A stretch of 40,147 nucleotides of DNA from Staphylococcus phage SP276: sequence record NC_055023.1. The stretch is one strand, 5' to 3'. The notes under the pieces are model-generated. The model was not told the origin of the DNA and made no database searches. It worked only from the letters and a program-made list of their open reading frames with translations. How positions within the stretch are numbered: the first letter of the stretch is position 1; each line of letters opens with the position of its first letter. The position numbers and the translations under genes were made by a program. Positions 6,667 to 16,521 of the stretch are shown piece by piece.

Positions 6667-7938
6667 ATGGCAAATCAAGACTTATTTTACGATATTACTA
6701 AGCAAGGTACCTCACAAGAAAAGCAACAATACTTAGTCACGCGTGTTGGTGACGGCGGACTTAAAACTGTAACAATCACAGTGTGGTCGAATGGTACACC
6801 TTACAATCTTCATGGTCTTACACCTGTTTTCGAAGGCGTTAAACCAGATGGCGAAAAAATTATCGACACACGCGGTGCCATTGTATTAGATCCTGTCAAT
6901 GGTGTATTTCGATACACATTCCCACATCAAGCAAGCACAGCGGAAGGCGAATACAGACAAGCCTTTTTCAAATTAAAGCGTGGCGAGCAAACAGATTCGA
7001 CACTTGAAGTCAAAATTACTGTACTTAAAAATATGGTTGAATTTGGGATTAATTCAGAATCATACTTTACCGAATACCAACAAAAAATAGCTGAATTAGA
7101 AGAAAAAATCAATACGTATTTAGAAGAATTGAAAACGAAGGCTGCAGGTACAGAAGCGCAAGTCGAAGCAAATGCCACTTTAGCAAAAGCGTTAAAACAG
7201 CAACTAGATTTGATTCAATCCATCGCGAATGAGCGTGAATTACTGACAAAAGGTGAATTTAACGAGGCGCTCAATACTGTTAATAATAATGTTGATGCAA
7301 TTAGTTCAAAAATCGATACTTTAAAACGAGAAACTACTGAAGAATTAGAGCGTATTAAAGATGAAGTGACTGGAGTTAAAACGGGTGTGCTTGATGATGT
7401 TGCTAATATTACAAAATCGGGTGTGTACTACTTTAATAGTACAACTCAAAACATACCGACACGTAATTCTAACAATGCGAACGGGTACATTGAAGCGGTT
7501 ATGAAAGACGCGGATAACGGTATGATGACTATGCTCGGTGCAGGCTATTCTATCGAAAAATATAAAGGCAAATTGCATGGGCGTTGGGTATCGTCTGTAC
7601 CGGTTAAGTTGTGGTCAGGTAAGCTGACTAAAGGACAAACCGCAACATTGAACGGTAATTGTCATGATTTTGGAAAACTAATCATTGAAGTAGGCTACAC
7701 AACTAATAGACATGCAGTTGAATGGGTTAACATTCCAAATAACGGCAGCACTATTTATATGAATCATATCGGTATGCAAAGTTCCGGCGACGGTTATAAA
7801 AACGGCCACCTTGATGAAGTTGTCATTCAAATCAAAGACGATACACATATCGTTTTACAAAAGACTTTAAAAGCAACGGGTGATGCTCAAGCGGTCGATT
7901 CAGACGCATATATTTCCGCTATCTACGGCATTTATTAA
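6667..7938 (+). CDS. Baseplate upper protein or receptor-binding protein (BppU-N-like N-terminus, coiled-coil stalk, C-terminal head)
   Basis: 423 aa. N-terminal ~120 aa resembles the BppU_N domain of TP901-1 and staphylococcal phi11-type RBPs. Central heptad-rich segment. Position before the lysis genes. Confidence 0.6.
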   Translation: MANQDLFYDITKQGTSQEKQQYLVTRVGDGGLKTVTITVWSNGTPYNLHGLTPVFEGVKPDGEKIIDTRGAIVLDPVNGVFRYTFPHQASTAEGEYRQAFFKLKRGEQTDSTLEVKITVLKNMVEFGINSESYFTEYQQKIAELEEKINTYLEELKTKAAGTEAQVEANATLAKALKQQLDLIQSIANERELLTKGEFNEALNTVNNNVDAISSKIDTLKRETTEELERIKDEVTGVKTGVLDDVANITKSGVYYFNSTTQNIPTRNSNNANGYIEAVMKDADNGMMTMLGAGYSIEKYKGKLHGRWVSSVPVKLWSGKLTKGQTATLNGNCHDFGKLIIEVGYTTNRHAVEWVNIPNNGSTIYMNHIGMQSSGDGYKNGHLDEVVIQIKDDTHIVLQKTLKATGDAQAVDSDAYISAIYGIY

Positions 7939-11479: not shown

Positions 11480-11836
11480 GTTATAATATTGATAAACGAT
11501 CTACTCTATAATTTACTCAGTTATAGCGTGAGGAGCTAACTGTTGCGATGGTTGCCTATTTACTCACCACACCCTCACGGTGTGGTATTTTTTATGGAAA
11601 CACCCCGCCTGCAATAGGTGGGGTGATACCGTTTTTGATACCGTTAATATTTAAATCTCACAAATTTGAAAAATCGAAAATGGCTAAATCTCTTTTTTAC
11701 AGCTTTTTAACAGTGTTTCACTTCAAAAAATCAACTTTAAGATTACCCATGCAGGACATGGCGTTTACTAAAATCGCCAGTATTGCTATAGATTCCAGGA
11801 GATAATTATAAAAATGATACCATTTCGATACCATTA
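11480..11836. other. Probable attP region: two tandem + strand hairpin terminators and four arm-type direct repeats GATACC(G/A)TT
   Basis: Hairpins at 11566-11595 (ACCACAC/GTGTGGT + T-run) and 11601-11625 (CACCCCGCC/GGTGGGGTG). Tandem 12-mers TGATACCGTTTT/TGATACCGTTAA at 11624-11647. GATACCATT x2 at 11816-11835, overlapping the int stop codon. Confidence 0.55.
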
Positions 11837-12880
11837 GTCATCAAATAGTGACATAACATCATGCTTTTTGTTATTGTAAAAATGAGTGTAAGTATCAACT
11901 GTTTCAGTTATACTTGAATGGCGCAACAAATCTCGCAACACATAAATATCGCACCCTTTATCAGCAAGGTAACTTGCATAAGAATGTCTTAACCCGTGTG
12001 ATGTTATTTTAGGAAAAATGGTTTTAACGGTTCTCGAAAAATGTGCGTAATCAGGTGGGGCGTAACCACCGAAAACAAACATTGAATCGTTAAAGCCATA
12101 ATATTTATTTGATGCAATTTCATACATATCAGATAACATTTCAACGAGAATTTTTGGTATTGGCAATATAGCTATTGATGAGCTAGTTTTAGGATAATCG
12201 GCCATTTTCCTTTGAGTGATATCCCAAGTTTTAGATATACTTATTTCTTTTCTTTCTAGATTCACATCTTCCCAAAGCATCCCCATTGCTTCGCCCACTC
12301 TAGTGCCTGTATAAAACATAAAAGTTAACATTTCTCGATATGTGTCGTTTTTCAGATTAACTATTTTATTGTGAAATTCTTCTTTAGTTACAAAGTTGAA
12401 TTTAGTTTTCTTTTTAGGTATTGTAGGTATACCAGTACAAGGATTTGGCGACAAACCGTAGTAAAGAGAAGCATATGAAAAAACAGCTTTAAAAGTGAAC
12501 CAGATCGTACGAGCTGTATTTATTGAATTACAATTATCTATAAGATGAGTTCTAAACTCTAAACACTGAGGCCGTGTTATTTCTGAAATTTTACGGTTTC
12601 CAAACTTTTCTTTTATATGATTCGTGTAATCATATTTTTTTCTGCGTATAGTCCTTTCTCTTAAATCGGTATTTTTTAATTGTTCATAAAACACAACTTC
12701 GTAAATTTGTTTATCTGAATAACCGTTTTTAGTTTTTTGAATAAAATCTGCTTCTGCAACTTTAGCTTGACGTTTTGTTTTAAATCCACGCTTCATTTTG
12801 CGTTTATTATTTCCAAACACATCTTTATACCTTACTGAAAAATACCATTTACCTGTTTTGTCATCTTTGTACACCGGCAT
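11834..12880 (-). CDS. int: Tyrosine recombinase (phage integrase)
   Basis: C-terminal catalytic blocks HGLRHSYAS and LLRHSSITETVDTYTH (R..HxxR..Y). RBS gaggaggaatgacgaa before the ATG at 12880. The ORF-track start at 12898 adds 6 codons. Confidence 0.9.
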   Translation of the reverse strand: MPVYKDDKTGKWYFSVRYKDVFGNNKRKMKRGFKTKRQAKVAEADFIQKTKNGYSDKQIYEVVFYEQLKNTDLRERTIRRKKYDYTNHIKEKFGNRKISEITRPQCLEFRTHLIDNCNSINTARTIWFTFKAVFSYASLYYGLSPNPCTGIPTIPKKKTKFNFVTKEEFHNKIVNLKNDTYREMLTFMFYTGTRVGEAMGMLWEDVNLERKEISISKTWDITQRKMADYPKTSSSIAILPIPKILVEMLSDMYEIASNKYYGFNDSMFVFGGYAPPDYAHFSRTVKTIFPKITSHGLRHSYASYLADKGCDIYVLRDLLRHSSITETVDTYTHFYNNKKHDVMSLFDD

Positions 12881-12918
12881 TTCGTCATTCCTCCTCAAAA
12901 AAAGTAAAAAAAATAATA

Positions 12919-12936
12919 AGGGTACAGGAGTACCCT
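12919..12936 (-). terminator. Palindromic hairpin (AGGGTAC-AGGA-GTACCCT) with a T-run on the minus strand, immediately upstream of the int RBS
   Basis: Perfect 7-bp inverted repeat. On the minus strand it is followed by TTATTATTTTTTTTACTTTTTTTG. Confidence 0.5.
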
Positions 12937-13166
12937 GTTAATAGCTTGTTGCTATTAAGAATAAACTTATTAATCAATTCATGTTATAATTAACGGGAAA
13001 GTAGGTGAAAGTGTGAATTATATTAAATTTGTGATAACTCATTTTTTGATTATTCTAGTGGTTTTGAATTTAGCAATTAGAATTTCTATACTATTTAATT
13101 TAAATTATACTGTTAGTTTCATGATGCTATATATAATTTTTTTAATAGTTGTTAGAGTTGAAATTA

Positions 13167-14354
13167 TTAATTATTATCAGAATCATTTTGGGATACGCTT
13201 TCATCTTCGTTTTTAATTTCACTTTCAAATTTTTCAGGAATTTCTAAAATATTTTTATCAGATGCATTAATTTTTTGATAAAATGTGCGCATTGATTCTT
13301 CCATCTGTATTCTGTCGTATTGATATTTTAATATATCGGTCTTTAGTTTCTCTCTTTCAACATCATTTCTTAATTCTTTAATATCGTTTGGAACCTTTTC
13401 TTGAAATTCTATTCCACCTATGGATTTTATCTTTTTACCCTTAAAAAGTTGGTAAAAAAGTATCACATTAGCTACCCAACTACTAACATTAAATACTCCC
13501 TCGTTTTTGGAATAAATCTCTTTAATAAAATCAAATGGTATGTGTGATATGAATTCGATTAAACCAGGGCTTTGTACATCTATCTTTTGAGATTTAAATT
13601 CAAATGAAGTAATTTCGGTATACATCTTTATTAAATTATTAAATTCAAACCAAAGTTGAGGTGAGATATCTTCTTTTCTTTTTATGTCTATGTTTATGTG
13701 TAAATGATTATTCTGTATATAAACTGGGTTTATTAAATAATTAATTGCTTCTTTATATTCTGATAAATTTATTATTGTTTGATGCATTTGGAGCTTATTT
13801 AATATTTTAGGATCAATACGATAGCGTGAGCATTTTTTTAACCATTTTACTTTTCTATTAAGTTTATTTTTTGAATATTTATAATCCTTCTTCTTACTAT
13901 CTATTTTAATGTTTTGAATTTCTTTATCGGTATATTCAATCGCATTACTAACAATGATTCCTATAGAAAATTCGAAAGATCTATAATTTGGAATCAATAT
14001 GTAATCACCTATATTAATTTCGTGAATAAACTCAAATAAGCGCTTACTTAAATCAGTGATATTTCTTTTAGTTAAATTATTTTTTTCTAATATTTTATCT
14101 CTTTCATCTTCAGATAAGTTGGAAAGGTTTTCTTTCAATTCTTTCTGCTTATTATCATTTTTTGATGTAATTATTTTTTTGTAGTCGTCTAATTTATTAA
14201 ATCCTTTTAAAGTATTTAAATCTACAATGTTGTTAGTTATAGATACATGGTTATTATATTTAAAATCTTTGTACCAACTTCCACCATTTGTACGAATTAG
14301 CCAATAATTTGTATTGTCAGGAATCATATCGATTTTTAAATAATTTTCTTCCAT
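13167..14354 (-). CDS. Hypothetical protein (395 aa), AT-rich moron; no recognised family
   Basis: Strong RBS (ggaggttgaggg-ATG). Very AT-rich codon usage compared with the rest of the genome. The N-terminal pattern YWLIRTNGG…GDYILIPNYRSFEFSIGIIV may be PUA-like or PD-(D/E)xK-like. Acidic C-terminal tail. Confidence 0.7.
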   Translation of the reverse strand: MEENYLKIDMIPDNTNYWLIRTNGGSWYKDFKYNNHVSITNNIVDLNTLKGFNKLDDYKKIITSKNDNKQKELKENLSNLSEDERDKILEKNNLTKRNITDLSKRLFEFIHEINIGDYILIPNYRSFEFSIGIIVSNAIEYTDKEIQNIKIDSKKKDYKYSKNKLNRKVKWLKKCSRYRIDPKILNKLQMHQTIINLSEYKEAINYLINPVYIQNNHLHINIDIKRKEDISPQLWFEFNNLIKMYTEITSFEFKSQKIDVQSPGLIEFISHIPFDFIKEIYSKNEGVFNVSSWVANVILFYQLFKGKKIKSIGGIEFQEKVPNDIKELRNDVEREKLKTDILKYQYDRIQMEESMRTFYQKINASDKNILEIPEKFESEIKNEDESVSQNDSDNN

Positions 14355-14355
14355 C

Positions 14356-14400
14356 CCTCAACCTCCAATTTAAAAGGGTAGGCGTGCTAGCCCTTTTAAA
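14356..14400 (-). terminator. Intergenic hairpin terminator between the two moron genes
   Basis: AAAAGGG-(12 nt loop)-CCCTTTT followed by a T-run on the minus strand. Confidence 0.55.
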
Positions 14401-14401
14401 A

Positions 14402-14911
14402 TCATTTGTTCGCTATAACTTTTAACAATTCAATGATTTCTTCGTTCTGTTTTATAATTTTGTCATTTTGAGCTATTTGTATAAAATTTTGTTTTTGATG
14501 GGTCATATAATAATTATATGTAGCTTGTTTTTCCATATTAAATGTCAGTTGACCAAAAGCATGGTAAAATTTATCAAAGTTTGCTAATATCTGCTGCTTT
14601 TGAAAGACTTCTATTGTAGTGTTTGAAGGATTGTAAATACCTTGAGTAGCAAAGAATTTAGTTATTTTCTCTTTTTGAGATTCTTTGCTCTCTTTAATTT
14701 TAAGTTGCTTGGTTTTTACTTGTTCTTCTTTAAGTCTTTTTTCTTCTTTTAAAAGATCAATTGGATTGTCGTTTAGCCATTCCCAAACAACATTATCTTT
14801 TTGTTCACGTGTTAAAGATTTGTACACCTGCTTTTCTTCTGTTGTTAATGTTCCTTTATACTTATTTTCATTCCAATTTATTTTAGTTTGTTCTTTAAAA
14901 TTTCTAGTCAT
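14402..14911 (-). CDS. Hypothetical protein (169 aa), AT-rich, Lys/Glu-rich
   Basis: RBS aaggagtga 8 nt before the ATG at 14911. Same orientation and composition as the 395-aa gene. No motif recognised. Confidence 0.65.
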   Translation of the reverse strand: MTRNFKEQTKINWNENKYKGTLTTEEKQVYKSLTREQKDNVVWEWLNDNPIDLLKEEKRLKEEQVKTKQLKIKESKESQKEKITKFFATQGIYNPSNTTIEVFQKQQILANFDKFYHAFGQLTFNMEKQATYNYYMTHQKQNFIQIAQNDKIIKQNEEIIELLKVIANK

Positions 14912-14936
14912 TATGTATCACTCCTTGTTTTTATAT

Positions 14937-14957
14937 AAAGCGCCTTGAGGGCGCTAA
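14937..14957 (-). terminator. Hairpin AGCGCC-TTGAG-GGCGCT directly downstream of cI
   Basis: 6-bp GC-rich stem between the cI stop (14961) and the start of the 169-aa gene. Confidence 0.45.
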
Positions 14958-14960
14958 ATA

Positions 14961-15683
14961 CTACAATATAACTTTTCCTGCTACTTTAATATCGTGACTA
15001 CTATCAAAATGTAAATCAGGATATTTTGAATTCAAAGATACCAAACGTATACCTTCTTCATTGATAAACACCTTTTTTAAATAAGCCTCACCATCAATGA
15101 CAAATATACCAATTTGACCACTGTTGATTTGCTTTGTTTTATCGATAAAGATAATCTCTTTATCTTCAAACATAGGTTCCATTGAGTCACCATTCACTTG
15201 CAATGCAAAATCGTGGTTAGGTATGTGTCCGTTGTATTGCGTCGTAAATTCCACACCATCTATCAACGTTTCTCCAGTGCCTGCCGAAGCATAACCGTAT
15301 ACAGCAACTTCTTCGGATATTACATTGTGTGAATTTATATGTAAGACTTTGTTGTTTTGTTCATTTAATTGTTCATTAGCAAAGTCTAATACACGCTTTT
15401 GACGGGGAGGTGTGAGTTTGTCGTATATTGAAGTGATTGAGTTTTCATCTTTATATGTAGTACTTGCTTCACTATACAAATCATTAATCTTTACGTTGAA
15501 GTACTCAGCTAAAACTTTGGCTGTTGATAATCGAGGTTCTTCCTTTTCATTTTCCCATTTTGAAATCTTACCTTTCGTCAGTTTCATTAGGTCAGGATAT
15601 TTATTATTAAGGTCAGTTGCTAATTGTTCCATAGTCATATTTTTATTTTTTCTTAAATTCTTTAAACCTTCACCAATGCCCAT
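14961..15683 (-). CDS. cI: CI-like repressor (XRE HTH plus S24 LexA-like peptidase domain)
   Basis: N-terminal HTH (MTMEQLATDL…). C-terminal VNGDSMEP (Ser nucleophile) and an LKKV Lys motif. RBS aaggaggtcttcat-ATG. Divergent from cro. Confidence 0.9.
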   Translation of the reverse strand: MGIGEGLKNLRKNKNMTMEQLATDLNNKYPDLMKLTKGKISKWENEKEEPRLSTAKVLAEYFNVKINDLYSEASTTYKDENSITSIYDKLTPPRQKRVLDFANEQLNEQNNKVLHINSHNVISEEVAVYGYASAGTGETLIDGVEFTTQYNGHIPNHDFALQVNGDSMEPMFEDKEIIFIDKTKQINSGQIGIFVIDGEAYLKKVFINEEGIRLVSLNSKYPDLHFDSSHDIKVAGKVIL

Positions 15684-16257: not shown

Positions 16258-16521
16258 CTAGAGATAATCTTTCAAATGCTTAGAATCGCATATGACATTG
16301 CTCCATGCAGCTTCACCAGTCAACTTAGCTACAAACAGGCTGTCATCATTATCAACAAATAGTTTCAGTTCGTCTCTAATTTCTTTCGCACTGAATACTG
16401 AGTTAACAAACCAAACAGATTTATTGATTCTTTCAGCATTAGGATAATCCTTTATTCTACTTATCAATTTAGGGTAATCCTTATGGTCATTCAAGTCATA
16501 CGAAATGATATAGCTATTCAT
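16258..16521 (-). CDS. Hypothetical protein (87 aa), antisense to the early operon; motif order reminiscent of a Cas2/VapD-like fold
   Basis: Consensus RBS ctaaggaggtgaataac-ATG on the minus strand. Blocks YIISYDL / DYPKLISRIKDY / INKSVWFVN / DDSLFVAKL parallel the beta1-alpha1-beta2…beta4 motifs of Cas2/VapD. Confidence 0.55.
   Translation of the reverse strand: MNSYIISYDLNDHKDYPKLISRIKDYPNAERINKSVWFVNSVFSAKEIRDELKLFVDNDDSLFVAKLTGEAAWSNVICDSKHLKDYL

Follow-up and report, generated by a model that had tools for sequence, protein, structure and literature searches.

The genome of Staphylococcus phage SP276 (NC_055023.1; 40,147 nucleotides, referred to here as the window) contains a 1.38-kb mobile cassette in its lysogeny module, in which the gene for a 395-residue protein converges on a small open reading frame (ORF) for a putative membrane protein with two transmembrane (TM)-like segments. 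By its profile matches, the large protein is a divergent member of PDC-S02, a family catalogued among candidate anti-phage systems as a single gene. The steady companionship of a small membrane gene suggests that this widespread "single-gene" candidate is probably a two-gene system. We tentatively propose, at somewhat less than even confidence, that the two genes form an accessory module expressed in lysogens, which would act at the membrane against phages by exclusion or abortive infection. The cassette comprises the following elements, with positions given in the window.

12982-14366, both strands: mobile two-gene cassette, 1.38 kb, consisting of the small ORF with its own promoter and the large gene with its Shine-Dalgarno sequence and no promoter of its own
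13167-14354, minus strand: large gene, 395 residues, ATG at 14354, stop at 13167
14366-14362, minus strand: Shine-Dalgarno sequence of the large gene, GGAGG
13013-13216, plus strand: small ORF from the ORF list, 67 residues, GTG start, two TM-like segments, basic C-terminus (GIRFHLRF)
12982-12990, plus strand: extended -10 box TGTTATAAT, read from the sequence, with a presumed promoter function
13003-13007, plus strand: Shine-Dalgarno sequence of the small ORF, AGGTG, read from the sequence

The large gene is real. It has an ATG start and a Shine-Dalgarno sequence, and the 395-residue product is 100% identical to called proteins in S. pseudintermedius genomes; these identical proteins, together with about 1,760 relatives at the cluster level, show that it is not a chance ORF. 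The initial annotation, made from the sequence of the window, had correctly placed a gene here without stating its strand, which is minus. SP120 (AP019560), a mitomycin-induced temperate siphovirus of S. pseudintermedius, shares 99.9% DNA identity with the window and carries the gene as ORF_18, a 100% match annotated "hypothetical protein", on which the SP120 paper makes no statement.

The small ORF runs towards the large gene, and the two share the last 50 nucleotides of the latter. It is missing from the annotation of SP120 and had been overlooked in the initial annotation, as had the low-GC cargo context, the middle alpha/beta domain and the TM-like helix described below. Among 49 non-redundant loci drawn from genomes and viral contigs, 45 carry a small hydrophobic ORF at this position (50-110 residues, hydropathy score KD17 of at least 1.8, -120 to +150 nucleotides from the large-gene stop), compared with 17 of 128 controls, which were other long ORFs of the same loci (odds ratio 73, Fisher p 3e-23). 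Exactly two TM-like segments are found in 37 of the 45 small ORFs, the median length is 70 residues (range 54-83), and the last 12 residues are net positive in 30.

The arrangement of the pair varies across the family: the small ORF is convergent in Bacillota and phage loci, and lies on the same strand as the large gene in Bacteroidota and some others. At a locus of 53% GC (L082), the partner has been called as a same-strand gene that overlaps the large-gene stop by 4 nucleotides; at one of 33% GC (L086), it is also gene-called on the same strand, 10 nucleotides downstream; and at one of 50% GC (L083), a homologous, uncalled ORF fills the "gap" downstream of the large gene. The small proteins of L082 and L086 match same-strand and convergent copies alike (E 1e-5 to 1e-41). 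Because the small ORF is present and homologous in loci of 50-53% GC, we do not regard it as an artefact of AT-rich sequence.

Within the staphylococci, the extended -10 box, the AGGTG Shine-Dalgarno sequence and a GTG or TTG start are kept at four loci (L014, L016, L026 and L009) despite diverged flanks. ORFs in the same position show 37% identity in an S. epidermidis-type locus (E 1e-10) and 29% in Macrococcoides (E 0.002), a divergence that roughly parallels that of the large protein. The ratio of nonsynonymous to synonymous substitution rates (dN/dS) of the staphylococcal small ORF is 0.25-0.38 over the 50 codons outside the overlap, so that the staphylococcal small ORF is under purifying selection. 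Its frame is the only open one of the six, and the probability of 67 open codons at the local composition is 1.2e-3. The small protein has no match in Pfam, PHROG, PADLOC or a collection of 5.8 billion proteins, and a jackhmmer search started from it reached staphylococcal copies only. The 50-nucleotide overlap (13167-13216) encodes the acidic end of the large protein, IKNEDESVSQNDSDNN, on one strand and the basic end of the small protein, INYYQNHFGIRFHLRF, on the other. Close relatives conserve both of these ends well, and the double coding constraint may be the cause.

The two genes move as a unit. DNA similarity to otherwise unrelated elements that carry close homologs is confined to about 12978/12982-14353/14366, that is, it runs from the promoter of the small ORF to the Shine-Dalgarno sequence and start of the large gene. 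The matches are a satellite-like element of S. cohnii (92.9%), S. devriesei (88.4%) and an IMG/VR contig (84%). In the window, the large gene lies between the integrase and repressor genes, on the strand of both:

11834-12898, minus strand: int, tyrosine integrase (Pfam)
12919-12936, minus strand: terminator-like hairpin with a U-run (terminator scan; RNA fold -11 kcal/mol, z -4.6)
12936-14960, no strand: variable cargo slot of the lysogeny module, delimited by breakpoints against phages VL4 and SpT152
14961-15683, minus strand: CI-type helix-turn-helix (HTH)/S24 repressor (Pfam)

The GC content of the slot is 24-27%, against about 36% elsewhere. The sister phages VL4 (L002, 2642-3259) and SpT152 (L003, 2200-2817) have the same integrase and repressor, and their slot holds unrelated hypothetical genes of 145 and 55 residues; homology with these phages ends at 12935 and resumes at 14961. 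Since the sister phages lack the cassette and homology breaks at the slot edges, the large gene is dispensable cargo in a swappable slot. The hairpin at 12919-12936 follows the large gene and precedes int, at the point where VL4 homology ends. Termination at this site would give the large gene a 3' untranslated region antisense to the whole small ORF.

Copies of the cassette occur in prophages and in satellites resembling S. aureus pathogenicity islands or phage-inducible chromosomal islands (SaPI/PICI), where they sit between an HTH repressor and an integrase, on the strand of these genes. The satellites with the cassette carry D5_N/PriCT primase and TscA/TscT genes. A tyrosine integrase follows directly downstream in 23 of 56 viral contigs, and most copies lie about 3 kb or less from a contig end. 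One copy in Virgibacillus is found past the lysin at a prophage end, a copy in an S. aureus island sits between leukocidin (lukD/E-like) genes and an enterotoxin cluster, and some family members in Bacteroidota are in non-phage contexts. Distant members have AbiTii (Hymenobacter) or a DEDDh exonuclease (PDC-S48) and an integrase (Pseudolactococcus) as neighbours. Distant homologs on metagenomic contigs are found beside SLFN-g3-like helicase, MazG-like and TPR proteins (L083-L085, 2149-4581) and beside Beta_protein (PF14350), a P4 cII-like gene and an IS1595 transposase (L082, 1-2768); these metagenomic contexts look like defence islands or mobile elements. The neighbours of other distant members are uninformative.

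The large protein belongs to a family that has been catalogued without characterization. PHROG 10226 (function unknown) matches it over its full length (E 6e-45), and three PDC-S02 hidden Markov models (HMMs) of PADLOC do so at E 4.8e-7 (PDLC04819), 9.7e-6 (PDLC04815) and 9e-4 (PDLC04806). The PDC-S02 models are also matched by 45 of the 46 relatives from the profile search, with a best E of 1.9e-23. Precomputed matches to PF28530 (DUF8426) exist for a truncated, 100%-identical copy of 350 residues (P0006) and for the relatives P0014, P0022 and P0028-P0033. Pfam, in a set searched without the PF28530 model, and NCBIfam gave no match for the large protein, sequence searches of the Protein Data Bank (PDB) with the single protein and with a profile gave no significant match, and we found no mention of DUF8426/PF28530 in the literature. 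A profile search of 1.8 billion representatives returned 1,760 relatives at E <= 1e-3, counted as clusters at 50% identity, nearly all of them full-length with 330-450 residues. Relatives in a large protein database are staphylococcal, from Mammaliicoccus, Macrococcoides and Virgibacillus, and metagenomic. Four of the 46 family representatives weakly match the PADLOC model REase_II (best E 3e-6), and a homolog in the streptococcal phage SF39 (OK173051, 38258-38968) is annotated "putative restriction endonuclease domain protein". The catalogue entries PDC-S02, DUF8426 and PHROG 10226 describe a single gene; to these our analysis adds a conserved partner with two TM-like segments within a defined mobile cassette, the probable assignment of a PUA-like fold to the N-terminal domain, and the finding that the large protein has no recognizable enzymatic effector.

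An AlphaFold2 model of the large protein, built from an alignment of 21 sequences, has a predicted local distance difference test score (pLDDT) above 90 for residues 10-210, is of moderate confidence at residues 211-282, and is poor beyond except for a long helix at residues 323-365. It divides the protein into the following parts.

13785-14327, minus strand: N-terminal PUA-like (EVE/YTH-like) domain, residues ~10-190, from the predicted fold and conserved residues
14019-14219, minus strand: charged three-helix insert in the PUA-like domain, residues 46-112, with model helices 55-76, 82-92 and 96-112
13500-13784, minus strand: middle alpha/beta domain, residues ~191-285, an orphan fold in the model
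13443-13499, minus strand: hydrophobic TM-like helix, residues 286-304, GVFNVSSWVANVILFYQLF (hydropathy score KD19 1.28; low model confidence)
13170-13388, minus strand: C-terminal long helix of mixed charge (residues 323-365) and disordered acidic tail (residues 366-395), from the model, pLDDT and charge counts

Both motifs cited in the initial annotation are present in the N-terminal domain, YWLIRTNGGSWYKDF at residues 17-31 and IGDYILIPNYRSFEFSIGIIVSNAIEY at residues 115-141, and the Lys/Glu-rich stretch described between them is a charged insert of 67 residues (K+R 15, D+E 13) that varies in length across the family. The description of the last ~60 residues as highly acidic was overstated, as they contain 9 K+R and 14 D+E; the last 30 residues are clearly acidic (3 versus 10), and the region of about residues 320-365 is of mixed charge.

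The initial annotation had also left open whether the N-terminal core was PUA-like or nuclease-like. Our data favour the first option, as a family of its own. The closest structural neighbours of the domain include the EVE-HNH enzyme VcaM4I and the reader domains of McrB, which are PUA-like base readers. A profile of the family's N-terminal region with the helical insert removed aligned by hhalign to EVE sequences of the PDB with a probability of 9% and P 0.0035, whereas negative controls gave P 0.24-0.77, and the register of this alignment is the one proposed in the initial annotation. In contrast, a Foldseek search gave no PUA-like match (best E 0.023), the EVE, YTH and ASCH HMMs of Pfam matched neither the window protein nor 46 relatives at E <= 1, a PDB profile search found no EVE or YTH domain, and the pocket motif WDGVRNYxARN, which follows strand 2 in EVE domains, has no counterpart in the hhalign alignment. 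We conclude with moderate confidence that the predicted N-terminal domain has a PUA-like fold and represents a separate family rather than a member of EVE. Among 172 relatives, its conserved residues are Y17, W18, R21 (100%), G25, F31, F109 and D117, together with P122 (100%), S126, G132, R167 and W171; the conserved aromatic and basic residues could plausibly line a ligand pocket.

The same 172 relatives bear on the nuclease option. The initial annotation had suggested looking for conserved acidic or lysine residues in homologs, and no conserved acidic, lysine or histidine constellation was found, so that a nuclease reading is without support. Across these relatives, there is no recognizable enzyme domain or catalytic signature in the large protein. 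PD-(D/E)xK and other nucleases were rejected because this constellation and an enzyme fold are missing.

In the middle domain, a VQSPG motif at residues 260-264 (13563-13577) is near-invariant, with SPG invariant. A profile of residues 202-292 (about 13479-13751) aligned this "V(Q/S)SPG" string with the N-terminal domain of RimP at a non-significant E of 1, and the likeness to RimP, which we rejected as an assignment, is probably due to chance or a shared local structural motif. The hydrophobic segment starts about 12 residues past SPG and is followed by the conserved G306 and G314 (94%) and then by a charged tail of about 85 residues. The family median of its KD19 is 1.79, with values of at least 1.6 in 94 of 153 proteins.

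These features can be combined into a working model of an anti-phage module. PUA-like folds of the EVE/YTH type read flipped or modified bases in nucleic acids elsewhere. In the large protein, a cytoplasmic PUA-like domain would be the sensing part, while the hydrophobic helix and the partner with two TM segments would provide an output at the membrane. In a lysogen, the large gene would be transcribed by read-through from the repressor operon, as suggested by its orientation, by the absence of a promoter of its own in the cassette, and by a precedent in phage 80alpha described below. Their hydrophobic segments would bring the large and small proteins together at the membrane. Binding of the PUA-like domain to a nucleic-acid feature of an infecting phage would then cause the membrane module to block DNA entry or to collapse membrane integrity, with superinfection exclusion or abortive infection as the outcome. 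The convergent, overlapping transcripts may keep the expression of the two genes balanced or mutually exclusive.

Several observations weigh against this proposal. To our knowledge, staphylococcal phages have no DNA modification that could serve as the ligand. With a KD19 of 1.28, the hydrophobic helix of the window protein is borderline. Across the family, K+R are richer on the C-terminal than on the N-terminal flank of the segment (1.74 versus 0.89; 55 proteins versus 20), which contradicts a simple N-in single-pass topology, as the large N-terminal part would, by the positive-inside rule, lie outside the cell. Such a placement is implausible without a signal peptide, and the segment may be re-entrant or insert only on activation. 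On the side of the partner, hhalign could not join the staphylococcal cluster of small proteins to those outside Staphylococcaceae; for this reason, the equivalence of the staphylococcal proteins is argued from position and architecture. The copy on the S. aureus island (L004-L007, ~7170-7400) has a frameshifted small ORF, with the N-terminal half in one frame and YYQNHYWLRLHLRL followed by a stop in another, next to an intact large gene (389 residues, 64% identity), so that the large gene may persist even where the partner no longer works. Finally, in a test of candidates that were expressed in E. coli B and challenged with T4, T5 or T7, four conferred protection, and the PDC-S02 representative, taken from a cold-seep metagenome and expressed from pQE82L, was not one of them (PMC12881386). 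The clone consisted of the synthesized coding sequence only (PMC12881386), and the small partner was therefore probably missing. Its absence may account for what is the only, and negative, test of PDC-S02. Family membership, on the other hand, speaks for a role in defence, as do the AbiTii, PDC-S48 and SLFN-like neighbours of some relatives: the PDC systems are 145 candidates that were nominated without tests because they are embedded in BREX, DISARM or type I restriction-modification loci (10.1101/2024.01.29.577857).

The position of the cassette resembles that of the Tha/Ith system of the staphylococcal siphoviruses 80alpha and phiNM2, which occupies the same cI-int slot and likewise has a small gene on the opposite strand. 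The occupant of the slot in the S. aureus phage 80alpha is tha-1, a defence gene that is transcribed together with cI in the lysogen, and the small opposite-strand gene forms a "noncontiguous operon" (PMC11087260). There is, however, no sequence or fold relationship between the systems. Tail proteins activate Tha, which has a HEPN domain; no HEPN match was found for the large protein in Pfam or PADLOC. Ith is a soluble inhibitor formerly annotated as Xis, whereas the opposite-strand product of the window has two TM-like segments and its gene is on the same strand in other phyla.

The large protein differs from type IV readers (the EVE-HNH enzymes of the VcaM4I/TspA15I group and the EVE/YTH-like N-terminal domain of McrB) in having no nuclease or GTPase partner; in place of these, its output region would consist of the hydrophobic helix and the small membrane protein. 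Compared with EVE, YTH and ASCH domains in general, the window domain lacks a Pfam HMM match and the WDGVRNYxARN motif and is split by the helical insert of about 67 residues. The text of an EVE census does not mention a membrane-linked architecture (10.1101/2020.08.06.240630).

The combination of a sensor with a membrane-embedded part is a logic shared with KwaA/KwaB of Kiwa and with the TM effectors of CBASS, Pycsar and retrons. Sie2009 and Ltp, which are membrane exclusion proteins of Gram-positive prophages, share the position between int and repressor in the lysogeny module. The window system differs from all of these in its PUA-like sensor type and in its domain order, and their PADLOC models match neither the large nor the small protein.

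A more far-reaching proposal, which we regard as doubtful, is that the family constitutes a new anti-phage class. In this class, a PUA-like reader of nucleic acids or modified bases would be wired not to a nuclease but to a membrane effector formed by its own helix and an obligatory partner of about 70 residues with two TM segments. It would combine sensing in the style of type IV restriction with an output by abortive infection or exclusion, be distributed over Bacillota and Bacteroidota, and travel in phages and satellites as a 1.4-kb cassette; PDC-S02 would then have been mis-scored as a single gene, hence the failed test.

Among other explanations, an addiction module is rather unlikely, although the geometry of the cassette in the window is compatible with it. 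The two-TM protein would be a membrane toxin, kept in check by the large protein or, in the manner of type I toxin-antitoxin (TA) systems, by the convergent large-gene transcript. The main effect of the cassette would be to stabilize its prophage or satellite, and any exclusion of phages would be a by-product. The convergent 3' overlap is the geometry of Fst/RNAII, TxpA/RatA and SprA1/SprA1AS, in which a small hydrophobic gene converges on the 3' end of a neighbouring transcript. Consistent with this, the small ORF has its own promoter and a 50-nucleotide coding convergence, which termination at 12919-12936 would extend over the whole ORF, and the cassette resides on mobile elements. However, in Bacteroidota and in the loci of 50-53% GC, the small gene is on the same strand and abuts or overlaps the large-gene stop in an operonic arrangement, and antisense control can therefore not be the conserved principle. 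A scan of 12700-13500 with Rfam gave sub-threshold noise only and no type I TA RNA. The small proteins, at 54-83 residues with two TM segments, exceed typical type I toxins in length, and the overlapping transcript codes for a conserved, multi-domain protein of 395 residues that is far beyond the needs of an antitoxin.

It is quite unlikely that the cassette has an accessory or housekeeping function at the membrane outside defence, in lysis timing, induction, excision or the handling of the element's own DNA. The location beside int in the lysogeny module and the unproven role in defence, with one negative test, would agree with such a function, and the two TM segments and basic, charged C-terminus of the small protein recall class II-like holins. 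The small ORF, however, is not beside a lysin, its product has no holin match in Pfam or PHROG, and a holin and a lysin are already encoded in the lysis module of SP120. Close relatives of the phage that share its integrase and repressor lack the cassette, so that the phage does not need it, and the cassette is also present in satellites, the S. aureus chromosomal island and non-phage contexts of Bacteroidota. We consider it highly improbable that the large protein is a modification-dependent type IV restriction endonuclease, in which a PUA-like reader would be fused to a cryptic nuclease located in the middle or the C-terminal part. The nearest structural neighbours (VcaM4I, EVE-HNH, and the McrB reader domains), the annotation of the streptococcal phage homolog and the weak REase_II matches of 4 of 46 relatives (3e-6) point in this direction, but the catalytic signature was not found. 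It is likewise very improbable that the small ORF is no gene at all, with PDC-S02 a true single gene and the hydrophobic ORFs by-products of AT-rich terminator regions. In favour of this, the small protein lacks database matches and has no sequence link to non-staphylococcal small proteins, and such a downstream ORF is seen with 13% of the controls as well. These points are outweighed by the enrichment (92% versus 13%), by the homologous and sometimes gene-called ORF in loci of 50-53% GC, by the dN/dS, the single open frame and the conserved extended -10 box, Shine-Dalgarno sequence and start, and by cassette similarity that begins exactly at the promoter of the small ORF.

Further features of the region lie outside the cassette.

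14367-14400, no strand: hairpin between the 169-residue gene and the cassette (-11.6 kcal/mol), weaker than the hairpin at 12919-12936
14402-14911, minus strand: Lys/Glu-rich gene of 169 residues, phrog_5375 (function unknown), within the low-GC slot
16258-16521, minus strand: solo Cas2-like gene of 87 residues (Pfam CRISPR_Cas2 E 9e-7, above the gathering score; PADLOC Cas2b 2e-6; phrog_1090)

The 169-residue protein has no match in Pfam, NCBIfam or PADLOC. Its gene was rejected as a partner of the large gene, since it is not conserved beside homologs and is outside the shared cassette; the gene in the corresponding place at the S. aureus homolog is unrelated to it. The 169-residue gene appears to be an independent piece of cargo. 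Orthologs of the Cas2-like gene in VL4 and SpT152 are annotated as Cas2, and there is no CRISPR array or cas1 nearby.

If the cassette is a defence system, it would couple PUA-like readers, which until now have been linked to nucleases and McrBC-type motors, to an output acting at the membrane, and a common system with some 1,760 clusters would join the defences that prophages and satellites carry in staphylococci and many other bacteria. The overlooked partner provides a specific argument for testing PDC-S02 again, this time as a gene pair, and it illustrates that "single-gene" candidates in such catalogues can hide unannotated small membrane genes. The exchange of the cassette between phages and PICI-type satellites represents a clean case of cargo shuffling in the lysogeny module. 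Among the lysogens that carry the cassette are veterinary and clinical staphylococci, in which it could hamper therapeutic phages.

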